DNA of 64,000 nt. It comes from Patescibacteria group bacterium (GTDB lineage: Bacteria; Patescibacteriota; Minisyncoccia; Phycocordibacterales; UBA9973). The stretch's first letter is position 1. Each line of letters opens with the position of its first letter. Of this stretch, positions 1,896 through 42,655 are shown in pieces. The notes beneath the pieces are model-generated. The model was not told the origin of the DNA and did not search any database. It worked only from the letters and a program-made list of their open reading frames with translations. A program made the position numbers and the translations under genes. Location: positions 152,586-216,585 of the forward strand of contig JAZJXT010000001.1 of the NCBI GenBank assembly GCA_040390725.1. Direction: 5' to 3'.

Positions 1896-1899
1896 AATT

Positions 1900-2265: not shown

Positions 2266-2281
2266 CAATAACAATAACAAT

Positions 2282-2890
2282 ATGAAAAAATTTATAATTT
2301 TATTTTGTATAATAGTTCTGGCATTATCTTTTAAAATGGCTTTTGCTCAGTACAGCTGGAATTGGACTAATTATTCCGGGACTAATCAAAATATGAATGG
2401 ATCTGGCCTCACTACTCAGGGTACAAATACATGGGGAGGTACTACTCCTACGAATCCTTGGGGTTGGGGTTTTGGCTGGGGTAATGTAGCGCCTGTGATG
2501 AAGGTCCAAGGCCAGAAGCAAGTCGTCGGGGATAAACAAATCGTCGGCTCTACCAGTGATGCTATTACAGGTTCCGCTATGCCTTTTTCCTGTGCATTTA
2601 ATAACAATAATCCTACAGCCAAAGATATATTTAATTATGGTACCTGCGTACTAGGGAATTCTATTATTCCTCTTTTATTTTTATTTGCTTCTATTGTTTT
2701 TATGTGGGGTGTCATCCAATACGTTATCGGTGGACAAGAAGAAGCAAAAAAGGATAAAGGAAAGCAGTTTATGTTTTGGGGCATTATTGCCCTTTTTGTG
2801 GCTGTTTCGGTATGGGGATTAGTAGGTATTTTAACCGGTACATTTAATCTGAAAACCACTGCGCCGTCAGTACAGCCGGTTTCCGAGTAG
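2282..2890 (+). CDS. VirB2/TrbC-like T4SS pilin family protein (paralog 3) with a Gly/Trp/Asn-rich N-terminal extension
   Basis: The start is taken at MKKFIILF (ATG 2282) rather than the track start at 2231. The C-terminal core FMWGVIQYVIGGQEEAKKDKGKQFMFWGIIALFVAVSVWGLVGILTGTFNL matches the paralogs. Confidence 0.6.
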   Translation: MKKFIILFCIIVLALSFKMAFAQYSWNWTNYSGTNQNMNGSGLTTQGTNTWGGTTPTNPWGWGFGWGNVAPVMKVQGQKQVVGDKQIVGSTSDAITGSAMPFSCAFNNNNPTAKDIFNYGTCVLGNSIIPLLFLFASIVFMWGVIQYVIGGQEEAKKDKGKQFMFWGIIALFVAVSVWGLVGILTGTFNLKTTAPSVQPVSE

Positions 2891-3010
2891 TCCACAGTAT
2901 TGTTTGCAGGCTGTGAGATGGTTGTGATACAATATACGTGCCTAATATTTTAGGAAATTATTATTAACAGGTCGTTTATTATTATAAATTAAGATTTAAG
3001 AATTTTTATT

Positions 3011-3397
3011 ATGAAAAAGAAATTTATCGTGTTGGGTAGCGTTTTGTCTTTTGCGCCGATGCTTGCTTTCGCGCAGACAGTTTGTACTACAAATGTTGGA
3101 ACTATCGACTGGCTATTGTGTAGAGTGGGAGATTTACTAAACACAGTTGTGCCTGTGCTTATCGCTTTAGGTGTTGTTTACTTCATCTGGGGTGTCGTTA
3201 CTTATGTAGTTGCAGGTGATGAAGAAGCAAAGAAGACAGGACGAGACAGAATGATCTACGGTATCATCGGTCTAGTTGTTATCGTGTCTATCTGGGGATT
3301 GGTTAGTATCTTGAAGAGTACATTCAATCTTTCAAGTTCAAACCCTGGCACTGTGCAAGTTCCTTGTATTCCTATCCCTCCAAACGTAACTTGTTAA
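3011..3397 (+). CDS. VirB2/TrbC-like T4SS pilin family protein (paralog 4)
   Basis: 128 aa: signal peptide, Cys pair and the core YFIWGVVTYVVAGDEEAKKTGRDRMIYGIIGLVVIVSIWGLVSILKSTFNL. Confidence 0.6.
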   Translation: MKKKFIVLGSVLSFAPMLAFAQTVCTTNVGTIDWLLCRVGDLLNTVVPVLIALGVVYFIWGVVTYVVAGDEEAKKTGRDRMIYGIIGLVVIVSIWGLVSILKSTFNLSSSNPGTVQVPCIPIPPNVTC

Positions 3398-3413
3398 TTT
3401 AATTTTTAATTAG

Positions 3414-3770
3414 ATGAATTTATTTTCTGTAAACATAGCTTATGCTGCGACTTCAAGATTTGATACATTTATCAGCAATGTTGATAGCAAAATTATCAAT
3501 CCGCTTATAATTTTATTATTTGTCTTGGCTATCGCTTATTTTTTGTGGGGAGTCTTTCAATTTATCTCCAATCAAGATAATGAAGAAAAAAAGACCGACG
3601 GCAAAAATCATATGATTTATGGAATATTGGGGCTGGTTATCATGATCAGTGTCTGGGCTATTCTTCAGGTTATTTTAAACACCTTGGATATACAAAAGTC
3701 TGGTCAGATAAATCCTGAAGAGGGAACAGTGCACTTAAATGATTACAATCCTCCATCATCTAATAATTAA
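3414..3770 (+). CDS. VirB2/TrbC-like pilin family protein (paralog 5, divergent, no obvious leader)
   Basis: 118 aa with the core AYFLWGVFQFISNQDNEEKKTDGKNHMIYGILGLVIMISVWAILQVILNTL. It is followed by a strong terminator. Confidence 0.5.
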   Translation: MNLFSVNIAYAATSRFDTFISNVDSKIINPLIILLFVLAIAYFLWGVFQFISNQDNEEKKTDGKNHMIYGILGLVIMISVWAILQVILNTLDIQKSGQINPEEGTVHLNDYNPPSSNN

Positions 3771-3840
3771 AAACGCAAAAAAAGAAAAAAATATAGGCGT
3801 ACCGAAAGGTACGCCTATTGCGTTTTTACGCGTTTTTTTA
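3770..3840. terminator. Bidirectional rho-independent terminator between convergent genes
   Basis: Nested inverted repeats aaaacgca.../taggcgtacc-gaaa-ggtacgccta/...tgcgtttt with T-runs on both strands. Confidence 0.6.
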
Positions 3841-4401
3841 TTGCCAGACTTCAAATTCTGTGAAGCCTGATTTTTCCTCCGACCGGAATATATAAGTTCC
3901 GGGCGGGTCATGGCGGTTTAATTTAATGCCTGGCGCATCATGGTAAGTTTCCCCGTCCGGGGTAGTTACCTTGACTTTGCCATACATTACTGTCGACGAC
4001 TCGTAAGTTTTCACAATAACCTTTGTGCCGTCTTTAGTGGCAACATATGAGGTTCTTACTTTTCCTACGGGGACAGTATTTGTACTTCCAGTGTTTCCAG
4101 TACCATCTTTTTTTGGTGCTGGATCAGAATGCCAAAACATAAATTTAAATATCCAGGCCATAATCATAAAGGCCAATGTAATTGGAACCCATTTTGAGAA
4201 CCATGACCCGAAACTAAACTTATGACCGTGACCACTTGCGTGACCACCAGAATGAGCATCACCATGTTCAGATTTGGAAACTGCTTTTTTGACAGCTTTG
4301 CCTGCTCCTGAAAATAGTTTTCTAAGAACAGAACCAAAGAACAACAAGGCAATCAGGGCAAGAATTACCCAGGGGGTGAGATTTATGAATATTAAATTCA
4401 T
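3838..4401 (-). CDS. Hypothetical membrane protein with a His/Gly-rich loop
   Basis: 187 aa: N-terminal TM, a HGDAHSGGHASGHGHK loop and a second TM. It overlaps the upstream gene by 4 nt, so an operon is likely. Confidence 0.45.
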   Translation of the reverse strand: MNLIFINLTPWVILALIALLFFGSVLRKLFSGAGKAVKKAVSKSEHGDAHSGGHASGHGHKFSFGSWFSKWVPITLAFMIMAWIFKFMFWHSDPAPKKDGTGNTGSTNTVPVGKVRTSYVATKDGTKVIVKTYESSTVMYGKVKVTTPDGETYHDAPGIKLNRHDPPGTYIFRSEEKSGFTEFEVWQ

Positions 4402-5786
4402 ATTGCACCTCCCTTGGCTTCTGTGATAGCGCTAGCTATCATCAGTGCGATTTTGTCATAATCGTTTCCTGACCCACTTCGGCTTGTCAGATAGGTGTGT
4501 TTGCTTTTTTCGAATGCTGTTACTTCTGCTTGAAGTTCCATCATTCTTGTGGCATCAACACCAGCGTTTTTGGCTTCTTCTAAGTAAGCCTTTAGTGCAA
4601 GTGCCTTACCTTCACCTTCTTGTGTCAGTCTAACTTTTTCACCTTCAGCAACTTGTATTGCCTTAAGTTTGTCTCCCTTACCAGCAATTTCTTTTTTGTC
4701 AGAGACAAAAACTTCGGCTAAGGCGTCGTTGACAGCATCATGGATACTTTTGGAAGCACCCAGGGCAATAACACGAGAATCCAGACAATCGAGCCCTAAT
4801 TTACCTTTTTCAATGAGAGTTTTAACATCTCTGGTAAGTGCCTTATCAAGTACGTCTTTGGTCTGAAGAAATATCAACATCGCATAAGTGTACTTTTTGA
4901 ATTCTGTATTAATTGTGCTTTTCACCATTAACGCTACTTGGCGCCCAAATTCCTTTTTGCGCTTTTCTGGATTTTCACCTGCAACGTTTTCAACATACAG
5001 TACTAAATTACTTTTTTTTGTAGTGATTACTACTGTTGGCTGTAAAACAATTTGCTTGTGGTTTGGGTCTTTCAAAATCCTCTTCTTGTCTTCTTCAGAA
5101 AAGATAAGATTACCATTTTCATCTTTTTCTTCCCAATTTACTAATTCAGGACTTCCTGTTGTGACATCATTTAAGTGATGGATCATAAGATTTTCCTGTT
5201 CTTCTTTAGAAAAATCTTTGTCTATCTCTGCTTGCTCCACTGCTGTTATCATGTCTACAAGATTAGTATTTGTGTCTTTGCTTATACTCATCAATCCGGG
5301 ACAAATTAAACAGGGATGTCCCGCATTAGTTGTTCCGAGAGCTAAGCCTCGAGCAAAGTAAATTACTGCAATTTCGTCTGGCTCTTGACTGTTCCATGAC
5401 AATTTAATAATGGCAATTGGCCAAATAAAAAGTAAAACAGCCCACAAGTTTAAGCGAAATCCAGGGAATTCAAATGCCATGAAACTTAGATCTATGGTAG
5501 ATTTTCCTATCTCGAATTGTCCGAGATTATGATGAAAAATCCATACCCACATAACAAATAACCAGGGCAGGGCCATTCCAAAAAAGTTCAGGAACCAGAA
5601 AATCTTTATACGATCTTCTCTTCCTTCTATTGGATTAGGATACAAACTCCTCAGAGCCTTACCTATTGTCTTTAGGTTACTTGAAAACCAAGCACTGATT
5701 TTATTTAGTTTGCCGATAAGCCAAAATAGGCTGACCGCTAACCATTTGAGAGCTTTGTCTCCCATCTTTTTCATAAGATTTTTCAT
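4398..5786 (-). CDS. Hypothetical membrane protein with a possible SPFH/band-7-like C-terminal region
   Basis: 462 aa: N-terminal TM helices; the C-terminal half is charged and helical (..EGEGKALALKAYLEEAKNAG..). The domain assignment is tentative. Confidence 0.4.
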   Translation of the reverse strand: MKNLMKKMGDKALKWLAVSLFWLIGKLNKISAWFSSNLKTIGKALRSLYPNPIEGREDRIKIFWFLNFFGMALPWLFVMWVWIFHHNLGQFEIGKSTIDLSFMAFEFPGFRLNLWAVLLFIWPIAIIKLSWNSQEPDEIAVIYFARGLALGTTNAGHPCLICPGLMSISKDTNTNLVDMITAVEQAEIDKDFSKEEQENLMIHHLNDVTTGSPELVNWEEKDENGNLIFSEEDKKRILKDPNHKQIVLQPTVVITTKKSNLVLYVENVAGENPEKRKKEFGRQVALMVKSTINTEFKKYTYAMLIFLQTKDVLDKALTRDVKTLIEKGKLGLDCLDSRVIALGASKSIHDAVNDALAEVFVSDKKEIAGKGDKLKAIQVAEGEKVRLTQEGEGKALALKAYLEEAKNAGVDATRMMELQAEVTAFEKSKHTYLTSRSGSGNDYDKIALMIASAITEAKGGAI

Positions 5787-6021
5787 AACACTATATATTA
5801 AAAATTAAAATTGATTACTCATTAAAGTCTTTTGTTTTTTTACCCCACCACTTCAGGTGCAAATAAAAAATGTTTTATTAAAAGACTTATTCTGAGCAAC
5901 CAATCAAATTTAAATTTTTGTCAAAGGACGGAGTCCAGCAATAGTGTATCACAATCAAACGAAAAAGTCAACCCTTGTGGGGCTGACTTTTTATGTTGAA
6001 ATATAAGGCTAGATTTCGAGA

Positions 6022-6816
6022 TTATTCGTGTTTCATTGGTTCGTTGTGAAAGTCTTTTTCAAAAAAACCTTTTCTGATTATTAACACTAATACTAGGATA
6101 AGAATCGCAAGCAATAACCATTGAAACAAAGTCGAAGGCAAGAATCCGTGCCATGCAAAGAGGGAATTAGCAGCTAGGTTTGATTTGTCTACAGTAGCGC
6201 TGGCAGGGGTTTCTGTTTTTGCTGTGGTTTTTGTCGAAGTGCTTTTTGATACAGTTTGTGTTGGTGCAGGGCTCGGTGCAGGGTTTACATAAGCTACCAC
6301 CGAAGCTGTAGTGACCGTGAAGAATACTCCATTTGAAGTTCCTCCGCTCGGCATCGGGTTAAAAACACTGATCACATATTTACCGGGAGTCATGACGTCA
6401 CTTGCATTTAAGGTGACTGTTAATTTACCAGAGTTGTTATAGCTGGTAGGGCGGTATGAATTATTGAATTCAGCCATTGAGCCGGGGATAAAGTTTGACC
6501 CTGTTAAAACTACAGCCATGTTTCCGCTTATTTCCGTGACTTCATTTGGACTTACGGAATAAAGTATAGGCATAGGGTTTGAAGTGTTTGAGTTGGTATT
6601 ATTGGTATTGTTGTAATTATAAGTACCGTTTTGATTGTAGTTGTAGTTATAAGATCCATCAGTAGCTCCGCTTTCATAAGAGTATGAATCGCTATATGAT
6701 GCATTTACTTTCATGGGCATTGCTACCAAGGCTAGGGCTAGCACTGCTAATACTCCAAAGCTTTTAAATATTAAGTTTTTATTTATTGATGTATTCATAT
6801 ATAGAAAGTATAGCAC
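6022..6816 (-). CDS. Secreted Asn/Tyr-rich protein with an IPT/TIG-like beta domain and a C-terminal TM anchor
   Basis: 264 aa: signal peptide, low-complexity N/Y/T stretch, PILYSVSPNEV..GKLTVTLNASDV..GKYVISVFNP..FFTVTT and a C-terminal hydrophobic anchor. Confidence 0.5.
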   Translation of the reverse strand: MLYFLYMNTSINKNLIFKSFGVLAVLALALVAMPMKVNASYSDSYSYESGATDGSYNYNYNQNGTYNYNNTNNTNSNTSNPMPILYSVSPNEVTEISGNMAVVLTGSNFIPGSMAEFNNSYRPTSYNNSGKLTVTLNASDVMTPGKYVISVFNPMPSGGTSNGVFFTVTTASVVAYVNPAPSPAPTQTVSKSTSTKTTAKTETPASATVDKSNLAANSLFAWHGFLPSTLFQWLLLAILILVLVLIIRKGFFEKDFHNEPMKHE

Positions 6817-6881
6817 CTTTCAATCTAAATGTCAAGCTTTTTTGCTTACATTTTTACCCTTATTTTATAAGGTTTAAATTG

Positions 6882-6963
6882 TGCCCGGAGTGGGGGTCGA
6901 ACCCACATCCCTTGCGAGACACGATTTTAAGTCGTGCGCGTATACCAATTCCGCCATCCGGGC
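6882..6963 (-). tRNA. tRNA-Leu (anticodon UAA), type II with long variable arm; CCA not encoded
   Basis: Cloverleaf read by eye: acceptor GCCCGGA/TCCGGGC, D-arm GCGGAATTGGTATACGC identical to bacterial tRNA-Leu, anticodon loop CTTAAAA. Confidence 0.8.
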
Positions 6964-6977
6964 ATTATTCAGTTTTG

Positions 6978-7049
6978 AGGCCTAGGACGGAATCGAACCG
7001 TCGTATAAAGATTTTGCAGATCTTTGCCTTACCACTTGGCGACTAGGCC
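6978..7049 (-). tRNA. tRNA-Cys (anticodon GCA); CCA not encoded
   Basis: Acceptor GGCCTAG/CTAGGCC, anticodon stem AGAT/ATCT with loop CTGCAAA, T-arm GACGGTTCGATTCCGTC. Confidence 0.8.
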
Positions 7050-7214
7050 TTATTTATTTATTTTACAAATATATCTCCAATTTTAATATCTGCGCAGATC
7101 TTTGACTATTAACCCACTTGGCGACTAGGCCTTATTTATTTATTTTACAAATATATCTCCAATTTTAATATCTGCGCAGATCTTTGACTATTAACCCACT
7201 TGGCTACTAGGCCG
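7014..7214. repeat. Tandem roughly 80-bp direct repeats of the tRNA-Cys 5' half plus its upstream flank (about 2.5 copies)
   Basis: gcagatctttg..cacttggcgactaggccttatttatttattttacaaatatatctccaattttaatatc recurs at about 7016, 7094 and 7177 (last copy partial, ggctactaggccg variant). Confidence 0.8.
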
Positions 7215-7291
7215 TTTGTATAATCTAACATTTTTTTAAAAACTTTCAAAATATAAATAATTATGCTAAATTAAATATGAGTTAAAAACAT

Positions 7292-7367
7292 GCACCCATA
7301 ACTCAGCTGGTAGAGTAGCTCCCTCTTAAGGAGAATGTCGGAGGTTCGATCCCTCCTGGGTGCACCA
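7292..7367 (+). tRNA. tRNA-Lys (anticodon CUU), CCA encoded
   Basis: Acceptor GCACCCA/TGGGTGC, D-arm ACTCAGCTGGTAGAGT, anticodon loop CTCTTAA, T-arm GGAGGTTCGATCCCTCC. Confidence 0.75.
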
Positions 7368-7368
7368 T

Positions 7369-7459
7369 GCTGGAGTGGCGGAATTGGTATACGCGCTAGT
7401 CTTAGGAACTAGTACCGCAAGGTTTGAGGGTTCGAGTCCCTCCTCCAGCACAATTGTAA
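7369..7459 (+). tRNA. tRNA-Leu (anticodon UAG), type II; CCA not encoded
   Basis: Acceptor GCTGGAG/CTCCAGC, Leu-type D-arm GCGGAATTGGTATACGC, anticodon stem CTAGT/ACTAG with loop CTTAGGA, long variable arm. Confidence 0.8.
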
Positions 7460-7461
7460 AA

Positions 7462-7785
7462 TTACTTTTCTCGAAGCAATTCGTCAATTTTTTGACGATT
7501 CTTTTCACCGCGGTCTATTTGGATGTCGATGAAGGGTATTGTTTTTACTTCCATATTTTTTTTCAAGAAATCTCGCAGGTCCGCTCTTTTTCTTTTTGCA
7601 AAGTCGAGTGCATCATGCTCTTTTGACTCAGGAAGTACTGTTATAAATATCGTTGCCTTTTTTAAATCAGGGGAACATGTCGCGGATGTCACAGTCACAA
7701 GGGAAGTCCTGTTATTTTCCCGCCCTAAAAACTCAGCGGAAAGCTTTTTTATAAATTGCGCAATTTTTTCATTTCTTTGTATCAT
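7462..7785 (-). CDS. rbfA: Ribosome-binding factor A
   Basis: 107 aa. TSLVTVTSATCSPDLKKATIFITVL...DLRDFLKK.MEVKTIPFIDIQID matches the RbfA KH-like pattern, and it sits immediately downstream of infB. Confidence 0.75.
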   Translation of the reverse strand: MIQRNEKIAQFIKKLSAEFLGRENNRTSLVTVTSATCSPDLKKATIFITVLPESKEHDALDFAKRKRADLRDFLKKNMEVKTIPFIDIQIDRGEKNRQKIDELLREK

Positions 7786-7867
7786 GTGTGTAGTGAATTG
7801 TGAAGATTTTCGCCTGCGGGCACTGGCCCCGTTTTGTCCGCCAGAAAATTTTCACAATTCATGAAAC

Positions 7868-9397
7868 TTATCTTTGTGTCACTGAAAATGATTCCAAGAC
7901 ATCTCCGGAAACAATTTCAATTTTTGATTCGACCATAGTTCCAAATTCCGAACCTTCTTCTACCTCGCTTACTTTTGCTTTACTCTTTTCCAAATTCACT
8001 ATCTTGCCTTTACCTATTTCGAAATCTCGGCGCATTATTTTAACAGTTTCACCTAGGGTAATTTTACCCTCAGTAACTTTCCCTCCGACTATTTGTCTTT
8101 CTTTTGTTCTGCTAAAAGCTTTGATGATTTTTGCTTTGCCTTTTGTCTCAGTAGTTTCTACTCGCGGGCGTCTTTTTTCCATTTCTTCCGCGAGCCATTC
8201 TGTCATTTTGTAAATGATGTCAAAGTGGTTTATTGTGATGCCTCTATTCAATGCTAGCTCGGTGGCATTTTTATCTATTTTTACATTGAAGCCTATTACC
8301 AATACATCACCCGGAATAGTGATATTTTTAATATCTGATTCCAATATTGGTCCTGTGCCTTTTTGAATTATTTTAAATTCTGCGCCGTCACTTTTTATTT
8401 TAGCTATTTCTTTTTCCACGGCTTCGAGTGAGCCGGCAACATCTGTTTTAATAACTATCGGAATGATTTTATTGCCTAACTTGGGAGCTGAGCTCCCAAG
8501 TGGGAGCTCAGCTCCCAAGTTCTTGAAATTCTCAACATATTTCTCAGCATCCTGTTTCTTGTCGAAAGTTTTAAACTCTGCACCGATTTTAGGTACTTTG
8601 TCGAAGCCTACGAGCCTGATGGGGGATGAGAAGCTAGCATCGTTTACCATTTTACCTAAAAAGTTTTCTATGATGCGAGTGGAGCACATAGCATCTTCTA
8701 CCACTACAGTCATACCATTTTTAAGCGAGCCATTTTTGATAATAAGGGTGGCTTGGATTCCGCGTTTTGAGTCTAGGTGAGCTTCGATGACGTAGCCTGA
8801 AGCATTTTCATCAAGAGTGCCGGTGAAGTTTTCAAGTTCCGCTAAAATTAAAATAAGTGAAAGCAAATTGTCTACACCTGCCCCAGTCTTTGCAGATATT
8901 TCCGCAAAAGGAGTTTTGCCCCCGTAATTTTCCAAATAAATTTCATTCTCAGCTAGGCTCATTTTTGTTCTTTCGATGTCCGCACCCGGTTTGTCTATTT
9001 TATTTATTGCTACGATGCAAGGGGTATTACTAGCAACTATTGTCTTCCATGCTTCAACTGTCTGTGGCTTGACGCCGTCTTCTGCTGATACTACGAGTAT
9101 CGCGATATCGGCGAGCTTTGCTCCGCGTTCACGCATTTTAGAAAAGGCTTCATGTCCCGGTGTATCCAAAAATGTAATTTTTTTTATGTGCTCGCCTGCC
9201 CCGTTGAAAGTACTCTTTCCTTCGGGGTCTTTATGAATAACTTCATAAGCAGAAATATGCTGAGTGATGCCTCCGGCTTCGCGTTCTACGACATTTGATT
9301 TACGGATGTAATCCAAAAGAGTCGACTTGCCGTGGTCGATATGTCCCATCACTGCCACTACCGGTGGTCTTTCAATTGTATTTTTTTCTTTTTCCAT
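7868..9397 (-). CDS. infB: Translation initiation factor IF-2 (short form lacking the long N-terminal region)
   Basis: GTPase motifs VAVMGHIDHGKSTLLD, FLDTPGHEAF, NKIDK; beta-barrel domains follow. Confidence 0.9.
   Translation of the reverse strand: MEKEKNTIERPPVVAVMGHIDHGKSTLLDYIRKSNVVEREAGGITQHISAYEVIHKDPEGKSTFNGAGEHIKKITFLDTPGHEAFSKMRERGAKLADIAILVVSAEDGVKPQTVEAWKTIVASNTPCIVAINKIDKPGADIERTKMSLAENEIYLENYGGKTPFAEISAKTGAGVDNLLSLILILAELENFTGTLDENASGYVIEAHLDSKRGIQATLIIKNGSLKNGMTVVVEDAMCSTRIIENFLGKMVNDASFSSPIRLVGFDKVPKIGAEFKTFDKKQDAEKYVENFKNLGAELPLGSSAPKLGNKIIPIVIKTDVAGSLEAVEKEIAKIKSDGAEFKIIQKGTGPILESDIKNITIPGDVLVIGFNVKIDKNATELALNRGITINHFDIIYKMTEWLAEEMEKRRPRVETTETKGKAKIIKAFSRTKERQIVGGKVTEGKITLGETVKIMRRDFEIGKGKIVNLEKSKAKVSEVEEGSEFGTMVESKIEIVSGDVLESFSVTQR
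8480..8519. repeat. Tandemly duplicated GC-rich palindrome (cttgggagctgagctcccaag x2) in frame within infB
   Basis: Read directly. It encodes LGAELPLGSSAPKLG and its composition differs sharply from the flanking AT-rich coding sequence. Confidence 0.7.
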
Positions 9398-9409
9398 TTT
9401 ATTTTCTTT

Positions 9410-9880
9410 TTACTTTATTTTTGCTTTTTCCAGAACCCCTTTTTCTTCTTCAGTGAGTTCGTATTCTGATTTGCCGTTTTTAATCGGCTTGGCGAATACG
9501 CTCATCCTGTCCCTGGAATACAAACTAGAAATTATTACTCCGTCGTTTTCTTCATTTATCATGCCGATAGCAAAGCTTTGGTTACTGCCTTGGTCAGGAA
9601 AAGGGTTGAAGCGTAAAGTTTCGAGTCCGCGAATACTTTTTTTTAATTTAGCATTCATTATTGCATTTTCTTTTTCAAAATTTTCTTTCGCTTGTTTTAG
9701 TTTTGTGATTTCATCTTGCATACTAGCGATAGTATCTTCTAAGTCTTGCGCTTTTTTGCCTAGGAAAAATCTTTTCAATCGGGATTCTGTTTTGACAACC
9801 CAAAAAATACCTATTATTATGGCTATGCTGGTTAAAATAAAAAAAACCAAAACAAACATGTCGGGGAGCTTTATATTCAT
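9410..9880 (-). CDS. Membrane-anchored coiled-coil protein (possibly DUF4446-like) upstream of infB
   Basis: 156 aa with an N-terminal TM and a coiled coil (DLEDTIASMQDEITKLKQAKENFEKE). The family assignment is uncertain. Confidence 0.45.
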   Translation of the reverse strand: MNIKLPDMFVLVFFILTSIAIIIGIFWVVKTESRLKRFFLGKKAQDLEDTIASMQDEITKLKQAKENFEKENAIMNAKLKKSIRGLETLRFNPFPDQGSNQSFAIGMINEENDGVIISSLYSRDRMSVFAKPIKNGKSEYELTEEEKGVLEKAKIK

Positions 9881-9937
9881 ACCATTTCAATATATACTAC
9901 TTTTATGCGAAAATCAACCAAAAAACCAAATAAAATC

Positions 9938-11041
9938 TATATGGACTACGCGTCTTCTTTTTCACCGAACCCGAGCTCTATACATGGTTTGGGTGTTGAG
10001 GCTAAAAAGAAACTAGAAAATGCTCGCAAGGAAACGGCGGAGCTTTTATATGCGCGTCCGGATGAAATTATTTTTACTAGCGGAGGAACGGAAAGTAATA
10101 ATCTTGCCATTTTAGGAGTTTTTAAAAATTTAAAAAATCCGCATATCATTACTACAAACATAGAACATGCTTCAGTACTAGAAGTTTTTAAACATTTGGA
10201 AAAAACAAAACAAGCGGAAGTTACTATTGTTCCAGTTGAAACAAATGGCATAGTTGATCCGAAAAAAATCAAAAAAGCGATTAAGGAAAATACTGTTTTA
10301 ATTTCTGTAATGTATGCGAATAATGAAATAGGAACTATTCAACCGATTCGTGAAATTGTGAAAGAGGTGAGGCATTATAGAAAAAATGCAAAAAGTACTT
10401 TTCCTTTTGTACATACCGATGCAGTGCAGGCGGGTAATTATTTGGATTTGAATGTTGAAAGGCTAGGTGTAGATATGATGTCTTTGAGTGGTTCAAAAAT
10501 TCAAAATGCTGGCAGAGTTGGGGTGTTGTATACAAAAAGAAAAACACCAATTAGTTCGATAATGTTTGGTGGTGATCAAGAAGGGGGACTTCGACCAGGT
10601 ACAGAAAATTTGCCGGCAATTTTGGATTTCGTAAAAGCATTTAAAGAAGTTAGAAAAATAAAAGATAAAGAAATAAAAAGATTAACAAAGTTGAGAGATT
10701 ATTTTATTCAGAAATTATTACATTCTAACATTATCAATAATGTCATAATGTTAAATGGCGACGCGAAAGAAAGATTGCCAAATAATATAAATATAACAAT
10801 ATCAAAAATACCTAGCGACCTTTTGGTGCTCGAGCTTTCCGCGCGAGGTATATATGTTTCTGAAAAAAGCGCTTGCAAGTCAGGGGATACAGAATCTTCT
10901 CACGTCATCCGTGCAATTTGCAAAAAAGATTCTCAATCCTTGCGCTTTTCTATGGGCAGATCAACAGCCAAAGCCGACATTGATTACACATTAAAATCCC
11001 TTTCCCAAATTTTGCAAAAATTAAAAAAGTGGTATACTTAA
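9938..11041 (+). CDS. Cysteine desulfurase / class V aminotransferase family protein (NifS/IscS-like)
   Basis: IFTSGGTESNNLAIL.., HTDAVQA.., the PLP-Lys region SLSGSKIQNAGRVGVLY, and ..GTENLPAI. The start could be 9905 or 9938. Confidence 0.7.
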   Translation, partial: YMDYASSFSPNPSSIHGLGVEAKKKLENARKETAELLYARPDEIIFTSGGTESNNLAILGVFKNLKNPHIITTNIEHASVLEVFKHLEKTKQAEVTIVPVETNGIVDPKKIKKAIKENTVLISVMYANNEIGTIQPIREIVKEVRHYRKNAKSTFPFVHTDAVQAGNYLDLNVERLGVDMMSLSGSKIQNAGRVGVLYTKRKTPISSIMFGGDQEGGLRPGTENLPAILDFVKAFKEVRKIKDKEIKRLTKLRDYFIQKLLHSNIINNVIMLNGDAKERLPNNINITISKIPSDLLVLELSARGIYVSEKSACKSGDTESSHVIRAICKKDSQSLRFSMGRSTAKADIDYTLKSLSQILQKLKKWYT

Positions 11042-33930: not shown

Positions 33931-34063
33931 AATATTATCTTAACAGAAAATGACATTTTTGGTTAGGATTTGTATAAAAAACGTAAATATTAGTCATTTT
34001 AACCCTCAATTTACGTTTTTCTTGACAAAAATTATAAATCGACTATAATATAGATGTATATTT

Positions 34064-34954
34064 ATGAATAAAGTAAATAAAAAAGTTCAAAATTTAATAG
34101 ACTTGAAAAAGACTTTTGATTCTCTTAAAAAGGGTAAGGAGTCTCTTTTGGCTGTTTTAGGTGAAGTGGAGCTTGCTGAGTCGGTTTATAACTCAAATGC
34201 TATTGAGAATAGTACTTTAACTCTTCCTGATACAGAAAAAATACTTCTGGATTTAGAAGTTTCAAAAGATTATTCACTTCGCGAAGTTTTTGAGGCAAAG
34301 AATTTAGCTCGCGTATATGAATATGTAAAAAATAAAAAAGATAATATTGTCTTAAATCAAGACACGCTTCTTTTTATCCACGGTTTACTTATTGGTGGTA
34401 TTGATGATTCTATCGCCGGCAGATTCAGAAAAGCTCATGAATTTGTGAGAGTGGGTAAACATATCGCGCCTGCTCCGGAGCATATCATGCGCATGATAGA
34501 AGTTTTAATAAATGAATATAAAACAAATCATGATTTAAATATTTTTAAAAAAATAGCGTATTTTCATTTACAATTTGAAACAATTCACCCGTTTTGTGAC
34601 GGCAATGGACGTATTGGTCGCGTTCTTATAAACTTACAGCTTCAAGAGTTCGGTTATCCGAATATAATTATTCGTGACAAAGAAAAGAAAATTTATTATA
34701 AAACCTTTTCACAATTTAGAGATGAAAAATCCACGAAGCAAATGGAGCAAGTAATATATTTATCTCTTTCAGAAAGTTTAAATAAAAGAATTGCATATTT
34801 ACAAGGAAAAGAAATTATAACTTTAGCCGAGTATTCAAAAGATAAATCTTTATCTTTGGCTGGACTTATAAACTCCGGCAGGCGTCAGACTATTCCTGCA
34901 TTTCGTGAAAAAGGTGTTTGGAAAATCAGCAATAGCTATGTCGTGGAAAAATAA
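34064..34954 (+). CDS. Fic family protein (AMPylase type) with an N-terminal inhibitory motif
   Basis: Fic motif HPFCDGNGRIGR, plus S-x-x-x-E-N (SNAIEN) in the N-terminal helix. Confidence 0.85.
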   Translation: MNKVNKKVQNLIDLKKTFDSLKKGKESLLAVLGEVELAESVYNSNAIENSTLTLPDTEKILLDLEVSKDYSLREVFEAKNLARVYEYVKNKKDNIVLNQDTLLFIHGLLIGGIDDSIAGRFRKAHEFVRVGKHIAPAPEHIMRMIEVLINEYKTNHDLNIFKKIAYFHLQFETIHPFCDGNGRIGRVLINLQLQEFGYPNIIIRDKEKKIYYKTFSQFRDEKSTKQMEQVIYLSLSESLNKRIAYLQGKEIITLAEYSKDKSLSLAGLINSGRRQTIPAFREKGVWKISNSYVVEK

Positions 34955-35239
34955 ATGAGCTACTACGCAGATAAAGGGAATAAATATCCGCAAAATCCTG
35001 AATTAGTTTTGGACTTTCACGGCTACACGACGATGGAGTGCAAAGAAGAACTCGATGAGCTTATTGGAAATAGTGAATACTCGCATATCCGCATCATCGT
35101 AGGCAAAGGGCAAAATAGCGCAAACGGACCCATCCTCCCAGACTTTGTCCGCAATTATCTCACAACCCGCAACATCCGCTTTAATCAATCCAAAATTCAA
35201 GCCGGCGGCGCAGGTGCCTTGGAGGTGTTTTTGGATTAG
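34955..35239 (+). CDS. Smr domain protein
   Basis: LDFHGYT..E....L...IG..EY.HIRIIVGKGQNS fits the Smr pattern. The start abuts the Fic stop (TAAATG). Confidence 0.6.
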   Translation: MSYYADKGNKYPQNPELVLDFHGYTTMECKEELDELIGNSEYSHIRIIVGKGQNSANGPILPDFVRNYLTTRNIRFNQSKIQAGGAGALEVFLD

Positions 35240-35277
35240 AATTTTTTTAAAAAATGATGTAGAATCTATAAGTTATA

Positions 35278-37985
35278 TGATAAGCCTTAATGAAATTAAA
35301 AATCGAGCAGTTACTTTTTCAAAAGAGTGGGAACGCGAAGTAAGTGAAGATGCAGAAGCTAAAAGCTTTTGGGATGGATTTTTTGATGTGTTTGGTATGT
35401 CTCGTCGCCGCGTGGCTTCTTTTGAGCATCAAGTAAAAAAGCGTGATGGCTCTCAAGGATATATAGATGTATTTTGGAAGGGTGTAATGCTTGCCGAACA
35501 TAAATCTCGCGGTAAAAGCTTGGATAAAGCATTTACTCAAGCAAAAGATTATTTTCCTGGACTTAAGGAAGATGAATTACCAAGATATGTAATAGTTTCA
35601 GATTTTGAAAAAATTAGAGTTTATGATTTAGATAAAGAAACTGAAAAAGAATTTTCACTAGGGGATCTTTCAAAGAATATAGATTTATTTGATTTTATTT
35701 CTGGACATAATTCTATTGTTGATTATGCAAAAGAAGAAATGGCAAGCATTAAAGTTGCTCGCCTTATGGCTGATTTTCATAATGAAATTGCTAAGACGGG
35801 TTATTCTGGGCATGATTTAGAAGTATTTTTGATTAGAATTTTATTTTGTCTTTTTGCAGATGATACTGAAATTTTTCCAAAAAATAGTTTTAAAAATTAC
35901 ATAGAAACTAAGACAAATATAGACGGCTCTGACTTAGGTTTACACTTAGGTCAAATTTTTGATGTTTTAAATACTCCAAATAATAAACGACAAACAAATT
36001 TAGATGAACAGTTAAAGCAATTTCCGTATATCAATGGTGGAATTTTTTCTGAACAGATACGCCCAGTATCTCTTGATGCCGGAGCACGCTTGAAACTCAT
36101 AATATGTTGTAATGCTGATTGGTCAGAAATATCCGCTTCAATTTTCGGATCTTTGTTTCAGGGTGTTATGAATGAAAAGGAGAGACGACAGCTTGGTGCG
36201 CATTATACATCTGAAGCCAATATTTTAAAACTCATACACCCTCTTTTTCTTGATGAGCTTTATATAGAATTCGATGAAGTAAAATATGATATAAAAAAGT
36301 TAGATATTTTCCATAAGAAACTTACCACGTTAACTTTCTTAGATCCCGCCTGTGGTTGTGGTAATTTTTTGGTGGTGGCATACAGAGAACTTCGTAAATT
36401 AGAACTCGAGGTTTTGAAACGAAAAGATAAAATAGGTCAAATGATGCTTTTGGGTGCGCAAGATTTATCTATTGTAAATGTGAATCAATTTTATGGCATA
36501 GAGATAGAAGAATTCCCGACGCTTGTCGCTCGCGTAGCTATGTATTTAGTTGACCATCAAATGAACACGGAACTTTCAAAAACATTTGGGCACGTGTATG
36601 CTCGTATTCCGCTACGTGAACCGGCAAGTATAGTAAATGATGATGCTCTTACTACTGATTGGGAAAGTGTTGTTCCAAAAAATAAACTTTCTTATATTCT
36701 TGGTAACCCACCATTTATAGGTAGTAAATTAATGTCTGAACAGCAACGAAAAAATCTTATTGCTTGTTTTGATAATAATGATGGTGTAGGTGTTCTTGAT
36801 TTTGTTACAGCGTGGTATGCAAAGGCTGCAAAATATATTAATGATACCGATATAAAAGTTGCTTTTGTTTCCACGAATTCTATATCACAAGGTGAACAAG
36901 TTGGTATACTTTGGAGCTATTTAAATACTTTTAAGATTGAAATTCAATTTGCCCATCAAACTTTCAAGTGGAATAATGATGCACCGGGCGTCGCTGCTGT
37001 TTTTTGTGTAATTATTGGTTTTAGTAATAAAAATAAAAATGAAAAATATCTTTATGAGTATGAAAATGTAAAATCTGAACCGAAAGAAAGCATGGTGTCT
37101 CATCTTAATGCCTATTTAGTAAAAGGAGATGATGTTTTTATAAAAAAAAGATCAAAACCTATATGTGAAGTGCCTGAAATGAGTTTCGGCAATATGCCTC
37201 TTGATGGTGGTAATTTATTGTTTACAAATTCAGAAAAGGAAGAATTTATACTGAATGAACCAGGGGCAGAAAAATTTATTCGTCCACTTATTAGTGCAAA
37301 AGAATTTTTGAATAATGAAAAACGGTGGTGTTTATGGCTTGTAGGAGTAGAACCACAAAAATTAAGAGAAATGTCTTTGGTATTAGAACGAATTCAAAAA
37401 GTAAAAGAATTTCGTGAAGCAAGTGTTGCACCTTCTACTAAAAAATTTGCATCAATTCCAAGCCTTTTTAGAGATAAAAATAATCCGGATTCTACTATTG
37501 TTATTCCTAGAGTTTCTTCAGAAAATAGAAAATATATACCTATGGGATTTTTTACTAAAGAATCAATTGTAAGTGATACTTGTATGTCTTTACCAAATGG
37601 AAATTTGTATCATTTCGGAATTTTAGAATCAGATATGCATATGATATGGGTTAATTATACTTGTGGAAGATTAAAAAGTGATTATCGCTATTCAAAAGAT
37701 ATTGTTTATAATAATTTTCCTTGGCCGGAATTTAAAGAAGTTGTTTTAACAAATGAAGCTAAATTCAAAGTTTCTGAATGCGCGCAAGCTGTTCTTGACG
37801 CAAGGGCTAGGTTTCCAAATAGCTCACTTGCGGATTTGTATGATTCGAATACTATGCCACCGGATTTAGTAGAAGCACATAATAATCTAGATAGGGCAGT
37901 GGATGCCTGTTATGGTAGAAAGTTTAAAAACAAAGAGGAGAGAATAGAATTTTTGTTTGAGTTGTATAAGGTGTATACTAAATGA
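35278..37985 (+). CDS. MmeI-family Type IIL (IIG) restriction-modification enzyme (endonuclease plus N6-adenine methyltransferase plus TRD in one polypeptide)
   Basis: The N-terminus FSKEWERE..AKSFWDGFFDVFGMSRRRVASFEHQVKK...LPRYVIVSDFEKIRVYDL closely parallels MmeI. MTase motif I is LDPACGCGNFLVVAYRELR and motif IV is ILGNPPFIGS. The track start 35145 is rejected. Confidence 0.85.
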
Positions 37986-37986
37986 T

Positions 37987-38208
37987 ATGGAAACAAGAAT
38001 GAATTTCAATGAAATATTTAATACTCACGTAGACGGTTCTATTGAACCGCGTCGTCTAATTCAAGTTGGGGGAGTATCTTTTGGTCCAGGTGTTAGATTT
38101 AATAGAGGTGTTTCTTTTTCAGGAATAGATTTTTCTCTTTTTATAGGTAGGGAGTTTCAAGTTAGAGATGAAAATGGAGTAATAAATATACTAGGTGTTT
38201 TTCAATAA
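37987..38208 (+). CDS. Hypothetical small protein (74 aa)
   Basis: ORF starting METRMNFNEIF immediately after the RM gene stop. Confidence 0.35.
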   Translation: METRMNFNEIFNTHVDGSIEPRRLIQVGGVSFGPGVRFNRGVSFSGIDFSLFIGREFQVRDENGVINILGVFQ

Positions 38209-38214
38209 ATTTTT

Positions 38215-38553
38215 ATGTCAAAATCACAAGAACAACCTGAATTTAAGATTAATGAGTTAAGGATAATTTCTGAGGCAGTTAATCAATCAAAAGATTATGC
38301 AAAATCTTATTCTGATGATAAAGTAAAAAATATTAATTGGTTAATGGCTGGTGTTGTTATTGTTTGCTTACTTGGTTTCTTGCAATTAATTATTGATTCT
38401 TTTCATATAAATTCTGCAACTTATAAGGAGTATTCTCAAAAAACTGAAGAGATAGAAACTACACAAAAAATTAATAAAGAGTTATTAGATAAAAATATTA
38501 AAAATCAAGAAATTATAATTGACTTACTACGGAAACAATCTTTTAAAGAATAA
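38215..38553 (+). CDS. Hypothetical membrane/coiled-coil protein
   Basis: 112 aa with a central TM (NWLMAGVVIVCLLGFLQLII) flanked by charged helical segments. Confidence 0.4.
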   Translation: MSKSQEQPEFKINELRIISEAVNQSKDYAKSYSDDKVKNINWLMAGVVIVCLLGFLQLIIDSFHINSATYKEYSQKTEEIETTQKINKELLDKNIKNQEIIIDLLRKQSFKE

Positions 38554-38583
38554 TATAATGGTAAAAAAAGATGAAAAAATTGT

Positions 38584-39426
38584 ATGAAAATAGAAATCAT
38601 ACAATCGCTTGTAAATAATTTTGAATCTTATGCCAAAAAAACTGAAGAAGGTGTGGAATTTTGGCTTGCTAGAGATTTGCAACAACTTTTAGGATATGAC
38701 AAGTGGGATAATTTTTTGAATGTGATTTCAAAAGCTAAAATTGCTTGCGAAAATACAGGACACAATACTTCTGATCATTTTGCCGACGCTGGGAAAATGA
38801 TAGATTTAGGTAAGGGGGCACAAAGAGAAGTCTCAGATATAATGCTTACGAGATATGCTTGCTATTTGATTGCTCAAAATGGTGATCCAAGAAAAGAGGA
38901 AATTGCTTTTGCTCAGAACTATTTTGCACTTCAAACTAGGAAATTTGAAATTATTGAAAAAAGAATTCAAGAGTTTGAAAGAGTGAAGGCACGTCACAAA
39001 CTTTCTGAAACAGAAAAAGAATTATCTAGTGTTATTTTTCAACAAACTCGTAGCGATAAAAATTTCGCTCTAATTCGCAGTAAGGGAGATAAGGCTCTTT
39101 TTGGATACGGAACAAGTGAAATGAAATTGAAATTAGGTGTTCCTCAAGGTAGAGCCCTTTCTGATTTTCAACCAACTATTCTTTTGAAAGCAAAAGATTT
39201 TGCAACAGAAATTACAATTTTTAATACAAAAGCAAAAAATTTAAGAACAGAACAGTCGATTTCAGACGAACATATTATAAACAACAGGAGTGTTCGAAAA
39301 ACACTCCTGTCTCGTGGTATTAGACCTGAAAGTTTACCAAAAGAAGAAGATATTAAAAAAGTAGAACGAAAATTGTCATCTGATGAAAAGAAAAATTTAA
39401 AGAAACCAGATAAGCTTAAAAAATAA
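38584..39426 (+). CDS. DNA-damage-inducible protein D (DinD) homologue
   Basis: EFWLARDLQQLLGYDKWDNF..SDHFADAGKMIDLGKGAQREVSDIMLTRYACYLIAQNGDPRKEEIAFAQNYFALQTRK aligns by eye with the E. coli DinD N-terminal half. Confidence 0.7.
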   Translation: MKIEIIQSLVNNFESYAKKTEEGVEFWLARDLQQLLGYDKWDNFLNVISKAKIACENTGHNTSDHFADAGKMIDLGKGAQREVSDIMLTRYACYLIAQNGDPRKEEIAFAQNYFALQTRKFEIIEKRIQEFERVKARHKLSETEKELSSVIFQQTRSDKNFALIRSKGDKALFGYGTSEMKLKLGVPQGRALSDFQPTILLKAKDFATEITIFNTKAKNLRTEQSISDEHIINNRSVRKTLLSRGIRPESLPKEEDIKKVERKLSSDEKKNLKKPDKLKK

Positions 39427-39481
39427 TATTAAAATAGATTTACATAAAATAAAAAAGTCAAAGTTATCCATAAGTATTATT

Positions 39482-40030
39482 ATGCAAACCCTCAAACAAC
39501 TAAACGGACTTTTTTATCGGGTGCGGAATACGGCGCGGGGGAGGAAAGTTTTGATAAGTATTGCGGGGGATGGGGCGGTGAATGTATCGAAAGGCTCGCG
39601 GGTGAGTTTGGAAAGTGTGGAGAAAATAATGCGGGAGAAGTTTGATTGGATTATGAGCAAGGTGTCGGAGCAGAAGGCTAAACCGCAGAAAATATTGGCG
39701 CATTATTCGGTGAAGGATTTCAGGGAGAATAAGAATCGGGCGCATGTACTAGTACGTGATAGGTTGGAATTTTTTAATAAATTCTATGGTTATAAAATAG
39801 GGAGGGTGAGCATACGCAATCAAAAATCGCGCTGGGGAAGCTGTTCCGGAAAAGGAAATTTGAGTTTTAATTACAAAATAGTTTTCTTGCCTCTCGAGCT
39901 CGCTGACTACATAATAGTGCACGAGCTTTGCCATTTAAAAGAGATGAATCATTCCGTAAAATTCTGGTCCCTCGTCGCCGAACAAATCCCGGATTATAAG
40001 CAGAGAAGAAAATCCATAAAATTATATTAA
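39482..40030 (+). CDS. DUF45 / YgjP-like zinc metallopeptidase (M48/WLM-like)
   Basis: ..YKIVFLPLELADYIIVHELCHLKEMNHS..FW contains an HExxH zinc-binding motif in the YgjP family context. The 5' half of the gene is conspicuously G-rich. Confidence 0.65.
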   Translation: MQTLKQLNGLFYRVRNTARGRKVLISIAGDGAVNVSKGSRVSLESVEKIMREKFDWIMSKVSEQKAKPQKILAHYSVKDFRENKNRAHVLVRDRLEFFNKFYGYKIGRVSIRNQKSRWGSCSGKGNLSFNYKIVFLPLELADYIIVHELCHLKEMNHSVKFWSLVAEQIPDYKQRRKSIKLY

Positions 40031-40057
40031 AATTTCGGCAGTAATGTTTTTTAATTT

Positions 40058-40088
40058 ACTTATTCGTACGAATAGGTAAATGGAGGTT
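40058..40088. promoter_or_regulatory. Palindromic operator-like site 1 (TATTCGTACGAATA plus GGTAAATGG) upstream of the ArsR-family gene
   Basis: A perfect 14-bp palindrome read directly; the same extended motif occurs at two other sites. Confidence 0.55.
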
Positions 40089-40108
40089 TTAGTGATATTA
40101 TTATATAT

Positions 40109-40369
40109 ATGAAAGATCATGAAAAAATATTAAAGGCTTTGGCAAATCATCGGCGTTTAAAGATTTTAAAATATCTTAGGGATAAAAAAATTGCTTCAGT
40201 GTCTATTCTTGCTGAACATTTGAATTTATCCTTTAAATCAACATCAAAACATCTTGCCGTATTATTCGGAGCGGGGATTGTGGAAAAAGAACAAAAGAAT
40301 CTTTCTATGCTTTATTCACTAGCGAATCCTTTGCCAAAAGTTGCAAAACAAGTTATTGGGCTTATTTAA
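40109..40369 (+). CDS. ArsR/SmtB family winged-helix transcriptional regulator
   Basis: LKALANHRRLKILKYL....ASVSILAEHLNLSFKSTSKHLAVLFGAGIV. Confidence 0.7.
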   Translation: MKDHEKILKALANHRRLKILKYLRDKKIASVSILAEHLNLSFKSTSKHLAVLFGAGIVEKEQKNLSMLYSLANPLPKVAKQVIGLI

Positions 40370-40404
40370 GATAATCATATTTATTTGGGTTTTAGTTGTA
40401 TTTA

Positions 40405-40435
40405 CCTATTCGTACGAATAGGTGTATGGTAAATA
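40405..40435. promoter_or_regulatory. Palindromic operator-like site 2 (CCTATTCGTACGAATAGG plus TGTATGGTAAATA)
   Basis: Perfect 18-bp palindrome between the ArsR gene and the downstream small-ORF operon. Confidence 0.55.
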
Positions 40436-40490
40436 CATTATCAGAAAAAGAGTCTCAAGTGTGCTGGACTGATACATTAGCTTGACGTGC

Positions 40491-40506
40491 AGAGAGAGAG
40501 AGAGAG
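40491..40506. repeat. (AG)8 dinucleotide microsatellite in the 5' region of the 40547 operon
   Basis: agagagagagagagag read directly. Confidence 0.8.
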
Positions 40507-40546
40507 TAATATTAGCCTATTACAAATTAGGCTTTATTTTAATTTT

Positions 40547-40699
40547 ATGACAGACGAAGAAATAAAAAATCTCACTCAAAAGGTGAAAGATGGCACAGCG
40601 ACACCCGAAGAAGAGCTTTCGTTCTTGCAAATCTTGAACGAATCTCTGGAAGGTCTTCAGGCTATTATTACACAAGCTAAATTGGCGAAAGCCGAATAA
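40547..40699 (+). CDS. Hypothetical small protein (50 aa)
   Basis: MTDEEIKNLTQKVKDG...; the track start 40487 lies inside the (AG)n tract and is rejected. Confidence 0.35.
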   Translation: MTDEEIKNLTQKVKDGTATPEEELSFLQILNESLEGLQAIITQAKLAKAE

Positions 40700-40703
40700 T
40701 TTT

Positions 40704-41174
40704 ATGAGAGAACTATTTGGACAAGAAAAAGCTATTTTAAAGAAATCTCCTGAGGAACAAACCCCAGACGAAATACGGTATTTAGCAATTATTGAAGATG
40801 CAAATAAGGCAAATATTAATATTGAAAAATTAAAACAACAAATTATTGATGCTGGTGGTCCAGAGGCTGTAGAAGAAAAATTCGGTGGTGGATATGGAGA
40901 TCATATTGTAAAAACAAAGTTAGAAAATTCAGATTATTTCGAAAAAGTTAGAAATTGGTTGATTCCAGTATCAACAATAGCATTAGTTTTAGCTGGTGGA
41001 AATGAGGCATCCAGAAATCCAGAGGGTGTGCCGTCTTTACTTGAAGCTTTAACGTTTATCTTAGGTAGCGGTGGAATGCTTAGTGGAGTACTTGCTGAAA
41101 TTGAAAGACGTGCTTCTAAGAAAACAGCAATGGAGACAGACATTAAAATGCGGATGGTTGAGGTGAAAGAATAA
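40704..41174 (+). CDS. Hypothetical protein
   Basis: ORF of 156 aa with a C-terminal hydrophobic segment. Confidence 0.4.
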   Translation: MRELFGQEKAILKKSPEEQTPDEIRYLAIIEDANKANINIEKLKQQIIDAGGPEAVEEKFGGGYGDHIVKTKLENSDYFEKVRNWLIPVSTIALVLAGGNEASRNPEGVPSLLEALTFILGSGGMLSGVLAEIERRASKKTAMETDIKMRMVEVKE

Positions 41175-42622: not shown

Positions 42623-42655
42623 CTTATTCGTACGAATAGGTAAATGGTAAATAAG
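42623..42655. promoter_or_regulatory. Palindromic operator-like site 3 (TTATTCGTACGAATAGG plus TAAATGGTAAATA) upstream of ychF
   Basis: Same motif as sites 1 and 2, about 50 bp upstream of the ychF start. Confidence 0.55.

Follow-up and report, generated by a model that had tools for sequence, protein, structure and literature searches.

The 64-kb stretch of DNA analysed here (the window), from a metagenome-assembled genome (MAG) of a Patescibacteria group bacterium, encodes directly downstream of an MmeI-like Type IIG/IIL restriction-modification (RM) enzyme two small proteins, orf73 and orf112, whose genes form a conserved, tightly coupled two-gene unit and are nearly always adjacent. Across Patescibacteria, the only phylum from which it is so far known, this pair lies within or immediately behind RM operons of several types. 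A preliminary description of the locus had joined orf73 and orf112 with the two genes that follow, a DinD homologue and a YgjP-like/DUF45 gene, into one accessory or defence module attached to the Type IIL enzyme (e.g. DinD acting with a membrane sensor and a protease effector), a proposal that the neighbourhood data largely refute. The region is best read as a variable restriction/defence slot, with Fic-Smr on the left and the YgjP-like gene on the right, whose content here would be the three-gene cassette MmeI-orf73-orf112 plus a separate, stand-alone DinD-type gene.

The orf73/orf112 pair and its restriction-modification context

A search for orf73 and orf112 homologues in the contigs that encode them, in species genomes and in metagenomes yielded 68 pair loci with 48 distinct orf112 proteins (window included). 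These loci represent at least six lineages of Patescibacteria, among them Kaiser-, Morani-, Sacchari-, Nomura- and Daviesbacteria and Paceibacterota, and 12 of them were found among 185,579 species genomes. The exact window proteins recur on one further contig, the identical 5.8-kb Logan assembly L001, probably from the same organism. A phage origin of the pair was rejected, as no orf112 relatives were found among the 2.9 million viral contigs of IMG/VR. The gene preceding orf112 is an orf73 homologue in most loci; in nine it is replaced by an unrelated protein of 116-135 aa, characterised by the motif FDGxDEI...FNIYE...KFRNxLG.GTSNK and lacking a Pfam match, and homology of orf73 to this alternative partner was rejected at a hhalign probability of 0.2%. 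The small gene and orf112 are separated by a median of 3 nt (at most 10 nt in 44/46 loci), and the gaps from the pair to same-strand neighbours have medians of 5 nt upstream and 3 nt downstream. Translation of orf73 and orf112 is probably coupled.

An RM gene was scored as nearby when it lay within three genes upstream or four genes downstream of the pair, which was the case in 35 of the 48 distinct loci, with direct adjacency in 29. Clustering of the neighbours recovered, upstream, an N6_N4 methyltransferase (MTase) family of 25 members whose representative matches PADLOC MTase_III (E=1e-110), and, downstream, ResIII/RE_endonuc proteins of ~890 aa (20 members, plus two in a second cluster) matching PADLOC REase_III with E-values down to 5.6e-170. 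The Type III order mod, small gene, orf112, res is the commonest context, being found in 18 loci, and the MmeI context is represented by three (the window, L007 and L008). Other RM contexts include a Type ISP-like IIG enzyme, a Dam-type MTase with DUF6997 and an N6_N4 MTase, an EcoRI-type MTase with GmrSD/HNH, an MTase with HNH, and a DpnII-like restriction endonuclease. The pair also occurs beside non-RM defence genes, namely an SLFN-type helicase with an S24 peptidase and a Schlafen AlbA_2 protein, and in the context of an AAA_15 ATPase adjoining a ResIII helicase.

In the window, the MmeI-like enzyme carries PF20464, PF20465, PF20473, PF20466 and PF20467, i.e. the N-terminal nuclease, helicase-spacer, methyltransferase, target recognition and C-terminal domains, all above cut-off within a single polypeptide, which assigns it to the MmeI Type IIG/IIL group; it scores 1194 bits against PADLOC REase_MTase_IIG. 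The enzyme is intact and precedes the pair as its operon partner at this locus: its TGA ends at 37985, leaving a single base before the orf73 ATG at 37987, in agreement with the 1-nt gap previously described. Across the three MmeI loci (the window, L007 and L008), each of the proteins MmeI, orf73 and orf112 shows ~64-74% identity (MmeI ~70%), consistent with inheritance as a three-gene cassette.

Both small open reading frames (ORFs) are real genes, since homologues exist for each of them (11 clusters at 61-79% identity for orf73, and 60 homologues for orf112). The orf73 alignment (A1) has a mean column identity of 80% and a conserved core F-x3-F-x2-H-x-DGSxEP ... VGGVxFGPGVRF ... GVSFSGxDFS, and an alternative start lies four codons in, at an invariant Met. 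AlphaFold2 (AF2) modelled orf73 as a confident small all-beta domain (pLDDT 89.7) with just two helices of four residues each. No match to orf73 was found in Pfam, NCBIfam, PADLOC (none at E<=0.1) or PHROGs, and searches of the PDB returned no sequence or profile relatives of either protein; the orf73 fold apparently has no close structural relative. A function as an RM controller (C) protein or helix-turn-helix (HTH) regulator was rejected, given the all-beta model and the lack of an HTH match in Pfam and NCBIfam. The orf73 proteins of Patescibacteria (candidate phyla radiation, CPR) have no signal peptide. Searching 1.84 billion representatives with the orf73 profile retrieved 268 clusters, mostly of stand-alone proteins of 70-78 aa; in a few larger proteins the orf73-like domain is C-terminal and preceded by a signal peptide or lipoprotein signal, with no annotated domain besides one DUF3011 and no informative fusions.

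The orf112 protein, deposited at NCBI as hypothetical protein V4439_01020, consists of a variable N-tail, one transmembrane (TM) helix with the hydrophobic segment WLMAGVVIVCLLGFLQLII, an invariant juxtamembrane motif DSFHxNSATYKEYS and a coiled coil, with D61, H64, N66, Y70, E72 and Y73 invariant in the alignment (A2). The AF2 model is one continuous helix spanning residues 12-111 (pLDDT 84). Lysine and arginine residues flanking the TM segment average 3.2 on the N-terminal and 0.89 on the C-terminal side (45 homologues), and this positive-inside charge bias predicts an N-in/C-out topology, in which the variable tail would be cytoplasmic and the motif and coiled coil would face outward. Similarity of the N-tail tracks the type of partner (0.14 between proteins with the alternative partner, 0.064 between those with orf73, 0.014 across the two groups); that of the C-terminal part is independent of it (0.50, 0.44 and 0.45, respectively). 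Nothing scored above threshold for orf112 in Pfam, NCBIfam, PADLOC or PHROGs, weak matches being far below curated cut-offs, and no PADLOC family was hit at E<=0.1. The earlier view of the two small ORFs as uncharacterised and restriction-linked is upheld.

Further genes were observed in Type III operons between orf112 and res: a KTSC-domain protein (70 aa) with an NYN-domain nuclease (~258 aa) in L034 (5842-6835), L039 and L046, and a DUF3800 protein (PADLOC PDC-M04A) in L011 (7311-8210), L043, L055 and L057. These optional inserts suggest further modular accessories of Type III operons. Separately, pair-bearing RM cassettes were located in or beside mreB/mreC/mreD/PBP2 or rodA/ftsW clusters in L008 (3408-8526), L011 (3455-12440) and L017 (5592-7363), and such clusters may attract insertions in Patescibacteria.

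The DinD and DUF45 genes

The four ORFs of the proposed module are present as claimed, the only and trivial deviation being a first product of 73 rather than 74 aa. Their grouping is favoured by a shared strand with short gaps (6 nt between orf73 and orf112, 30 nt between orf112 and DinD, 55 nt between DinD and DUF45), by a scan that found neither a strong internal promoter nor a + strand terminator between Fic and DUF45, and by the identical arrangement on L001. Gene-neighbourhood analysis, however, recovered the four genes together nowhere beyond that identical contig, and a DinD or DUF45 homologue within ~7 kb was found at 0/47 distinct pair loci outside the window. The MmeI-orf73-orf112 trios of L007, with recG behind it in opposite orientation, and of L008, located downstream of mreC, lack both genes. 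Moreover, DUF45 orthologues occur after HsdS (L069) or in a non-defence context (L070), and plasmid DinD homologues stand alone in unrelated contexts. A single module of all four genes is accordingly most improbable, and annotations should not link DinD and DUF45 to the pair cassette as partners.

The identities given earlier to the DinD and DUF45 genes both pass curated thresholds. DinD reaches 352.4 bits against the NCBIfam equivalog NF008573 (cut-off 242), aligning residues 2-278 with profile positions 2-287 of 288, and bears an N-terminal Bro-N Pfam domain; it also matches PADLOC PDC-S13 (PDLC04919, E=4.7e-113, 1-276 vs 1-277 of 281) and the phage family phrog_8036 (E=2e-93). The E. coli dinD gene is LexA-regulated and listed only as 'DNA-damage-inducible protein' (PMC6590174). 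The window gene resembles it in its full-length match above the equivalog cut-off and its Bro-N domain, and differs in its location within an RM island of a Patescibacterium and in the absence of a CTGT-N8-ACAG LexA box from the 30-nt spacer (38554-38583), this consensus being of E. coli type and possibly not that of Patescibacteria. A link of DinD-type genes to defence, as suggested in the preliminary description, is supported by PDC-S13 being a candidate single-gene defence system, on which nothing was found in the literature searched, and by the dinD-domain coding sequences (CDSs) on record between core genes of Type I RM systems (PMC9881135).

A pairing of DinD with YgjP on plasmids was rejected, a same-strand adjacent YgjP gene being found in 0/7 plasmid DinD homologues inspected. 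These homologues are stand-alone insertions, e.g. between cysD and cysN, after parAB or in phage-like regions. The window DinD does not belong to the pair but is a separate passenger within the variable island, most likely acting alone as a candidate defence or selfish gene. On a Chondrinema plasmid (L076, NZ_CP111067.1), a DinD homologue with 53% identity (3852-4697) lies between cysD and cysN, consistent with DinD genes being mobile stand-alone insertions. Within the 3' part of the window DinD coding region, a hairpin with a 13-bp stem, AACAGGAGTGTTCGAAAAACACTCCTGTC (39283-39311), is terminator-like on the minus strand only.

The DUF45 protein matches PF01863 with 137.5 bits (cut-off 26; E=7.8e-40) and contains HELCH (HExxH) within ...IIVHELCHLKEMNH.... 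Its orthologue in the closest relative, a Ca. Nomurabacteria genome (L069; 75% aa identity), starts 8 nt after hsdS and closes a Type I island on its right-hand side, in line with the earlier statement that DUF45 proteins are partners of restriction systems; in a third genome (L070) the orthologue, 61% identical, has non-defence surroundings. DUF45 genes are common in Patescibacteria, and the position of this one beside the variable RM slot is incidental. The window protein has the HExxH zincin-like fold of YgjP/DUF45 (PF01863, COG1451) and matches the family over its full length, and the position directly after hsdS is seen in its L069 orthologue; unlike that family, it follows DinD rather than a Type I system and carries a conserved 5' half rich in third-position G (G3). 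The island of L069 has the same outer ends as the window, running from Fic-Smr through Type I RM genes to DUF45, and because these ends match, the window is read as Fic-Smr, a variable cassette (MmeI-orf73-orf112, and DinD) and DUF45.

The 5' half of the DUF45 gene had been described as markedly G-rich relative to its 3' half and to the neighbours, and sliding-window composition confirmed it. G amounts to 36.0% over 39500-39760, compared with a window mean of 19.8% (sd 3.7), a value reached by only 3 of ~6,400 260-bp windows, all overlapping this segment, which holds the maximum of the 64 kb; the excess is one of third-position G, which reaches 49.5% in the 5' half against 20% in the 3' half. 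The idea of a chimeric or recently recombined gene, drawn from this asymmetry, did not hold up. DUF45 homologues number more than 6,600, and most among the matches listed are colinear with the window protein over 94-100% of its length; in addition, the L069 and L070 orthologues (10001-10280 in each) have 5' halves with G of 0.36-0.38 and G3 of ~0.5, and 3' halves with G of ~0.2. Since the orthologues of three genomes, with different neighbours and genomic GC, share it, the G-rich half is ancestral and is no evidence of recombination. The fraction of identical residues that also share their codon is higher in the 5' half (0.79) than in the 3' half (0.61), which hints at a nucleotide-level or codon-choice constraint. 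Candidate causes of the G3 enrichment are Shine-Dalgarno-like GGAGG/GGGG runs, mRNA structure or a DNA-level signal; an RNA element was rejected, as an Rfam search of 37000-41000 (E<=1) gave only a weak, irrelevant IS009 match.

Possible roles of the pair

Tentatively, we favour a slot carrying an RM-accessory pair that tethers or couples a restriction enzyme to the envelope, plus a stand-alone DinD. In such an arrangement orf112 would be a bitopic membrane anchor whose variable N-tail faces the cytoplasm; orf73, or the unrelated 116-135 aa protein in some loci, would be a cytoplasmic adaptor binding that tail; and the pair would hold the restriction enzyme at, or couple it to, the cell envelope, the site of foreign DNA entry. 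Partner binding is suggested by the N-tail similarity that follows partner type and by one homologue, P0245, in which the orf73 domain is fused to a C-terminal TM helix. The more general proposal that the pair is a Patescibacteria-wide membrane anchor with an exchangeable adaptor, positioning or gating Type III and IIG/IIL enzymes at the envelope, is doubtful.

Several points weigh against tethering. We infer the binding of orf73 to the orf112 tail as well as the physical link of the pair to RM enzymes; the topology of orf112 is a prediction with a single source, the positive-inside rule; and the covariation of N-tail and partner is confounded by phylogeny. Secreted or lipid-anchored orf73-like domains in other bacteria point to an envelope function rather than to binding of a cytoplasmic nuclease. 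No recognised RM gene is nearby in 13 of the 48 loci, some of them on short contigs, and in L053 the pair adjoins ribosomal protein L9 with no RM gene seen. Finally, the correlation of orf112 distances with those of Mod and Res was not significant (Mantel r=0.18 and 0.23; n=10), while Mod and Res co-vary in the same comparison (r=0.82, p=0.0005).

Because orf112 does not track Mod and Res, and relatives of the orf73 domain are secreted, an autonomous envelope-level defence or exclusion system is possible and nearly as likely as tethering: the pair would keep DNA from entering or serve as a membrane effector of abortive infection, co-travelling with RM cassettes as an additional layer of defence and not touching their enzymes. 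The invariant motif and the coiled coil, both predicted to be extracytoplasmic, would suit such a role, as would the proximity of SLFN helicase and S24 peptidase, AAA_15 and Schlafen AlbA_2 genes and the loci without an RM gene. Yet junctions of 0-5 nt between mod and res in many independent lineages would be unusual for an unrelated passenger, CPR orf73 proteins lack the signal peptide, PADLOC yields no match, and viral contigs, where exclusion genes abound, contain no relatives. Less likely are a regulatory and a housekeeping explanation. As a toxin-antitoxin (TA)-like addiction or expression-control element, stabilising the RM cassette or timing res expression, the pair would have the expected small products and two tightly coupled genes, a first gene that is exchangeable and a second that is constant, and a location just upstream of res useful for delayed nuclease expression; this is unlikely, in that no TA, HTH or controller-protein family is matched, orf73 is all-beta without a DNA-binding signature, and next to MmeI, ISP and some Type II enzymes the pair comes after the nuclease gene, not before it.

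Even less probable is a housekeeping module of envelope or cell-division type, similar to FtsB/DivIC, beside which RM cassettes insert as a hot-spot effect. Like FtsB/DivIC/FtsL, orf112 combines in ~100-120 aa a short N-tail in the cytoplasm with a single TM helix and a coiled coil beyond the membrane, in the predicted bitopic N-in/C-out arrangement; one homologue was named FtsB by JGI, and three loci lie in mreBCD/rodA neighbourhoods. The resemblance is one of architecture alone, FtsB and DivIC profiles of Pfam and NCBIfam giving no match at E<=0.1, and orf112 differs in its family-specific DSFHxNSATYKEYS motif and in a context of RM cassettes rather than division clusters. Furthermore, the flanking core genes differ at almost every locus, the 12 loci in species genomes are far too few for a housekeeping function, and in L011 the pair itself is part of the insert, the entire Mod-pair-DUF3800-Res block having entered between mreB and mreC.

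Kiwa (KwaA/KwaB) and RexAB also combine a membrane component with a soluble partner and are encoded in defence islands. The likeness of the pair to these systems was examined with PADLOC profiles: no component profile of membrane-linked PADLOC systems (Kiwa, Zorya, Rex and others) was matched by orf73 or orf112 at E<=0.1. The pair differs further: orf112 is a single-TM coiled-coil protein and not a multi-pass sensor or channel, and the two genes lie inside RM operons instead of forming a stand-alone locus. Accessory genes are already known from RM operons, with DinD/RhuM, Fic/DOC, DUF1016 and GIY-YIG CDSs reported between hsdR/M/S of Type I systems (PMC9881135). The pair shares with these the packing of extra same-strand genes between core subunit genes, recurrently across lineages; it differs in consisting of a membrane protein and a small beta protein without a match to those families, and in occurring mainly in Type III and IIG/IIL rather than Type I systems, so far in Patescibacteria. 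It would represent a new class of accessory component; within the limited literature searched, no description was found of the pair or of Type III RM accessories in CPR.

RM operons are among the best-studied defence loci, and the pair adds to them a two-gene membrane cassette without family assignment in many lineages of a phylum that holds a large share of bacterial diversity. If it modulates or localises restriction, Type III and Type IIL systems would gain a new component class, with a bearing on food-versus-foe discrimination by genome-reduced symbionts that depend on imported DNA. Anchoring at the envelope, where phage DNA is injected and scavenged DNA imported, would mean that restriction in ultra-small episymbionts is spatially organised and not freely cytoplasmic. 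As an independent envelope defence, the pair would still be a new candidate system missed by PADLOC.

Layout and flanks of the slot

The features of the slot are listed below. No convincing flanking repeats that would mark a mobile cassette were found between 33500 and 41500.

Features of the variable slot; coordinates refer to the whole 64-kb window, and all seven genes from Fic to DUF45 are on the + strand
Feature	Position	Strand	Description
Fic	34064-34954	+	Fic Pfam match; PADLOC PDC-S04/SoFic
Smr	34955-35239	+	Smr Pfam match
MmeI-like Type IIG/IIL restriction-modification enzyme	35277-37985	+	Five MmeI Pfam domains; PADLOC match
orf73	37987-38208	+	73 aa; small all-beta protein, first gene of the pair
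orf112	38215-38553	+	112 aa; single-pass membrane coiled-coil protein, core gene of the pair
DinD homologue	38584-39426	+	280 aa; Bro-N domain plus DinD C-terminal region
YgjP-like/DUF45 HExxH metallopeptidase-fold protein	39482-40030	+	182 aa; PF01863, HELCH
G-rich (G3-rich) 5' half of DUF45 gene	39500-39760	+	G composition
ArsR-type regulator	40109-40369		Downstream of the DUF45 gene

At the left edge of the slot, Fic and Smr abut without a gap, and the same junction is found in L069 (1-404), where Smr is 94% identical (aa) to that of the window and the C-termini of Fic differ. The two may be a conserved two-gene unit; a 12/12 match to the sigma-70 consensus is present at 34022-34049. In L069, the Type I RM operon (1759-9992) contains genes for RhuM, a 58-aa ORF, a TIR-domain protein and DUF3644 between hsdM and hsdS, and RadC and a PhdYeFM/ParE pair are located upstream of it.

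Beyond the right edge, the 14-bp palindrome TATTCGTACGAATA occurs in three copies in the 64 kb, compared with 0.37 expected (40054-40083, 40400-40429 and 42625-42638). Two of them, inside repeats of ~30 nt, bracket the ArsR-family gene, and the third lies just upstream of a YchF-like GTPase gene (42703). Together they look like an operator set for the ArsR-type regulator.

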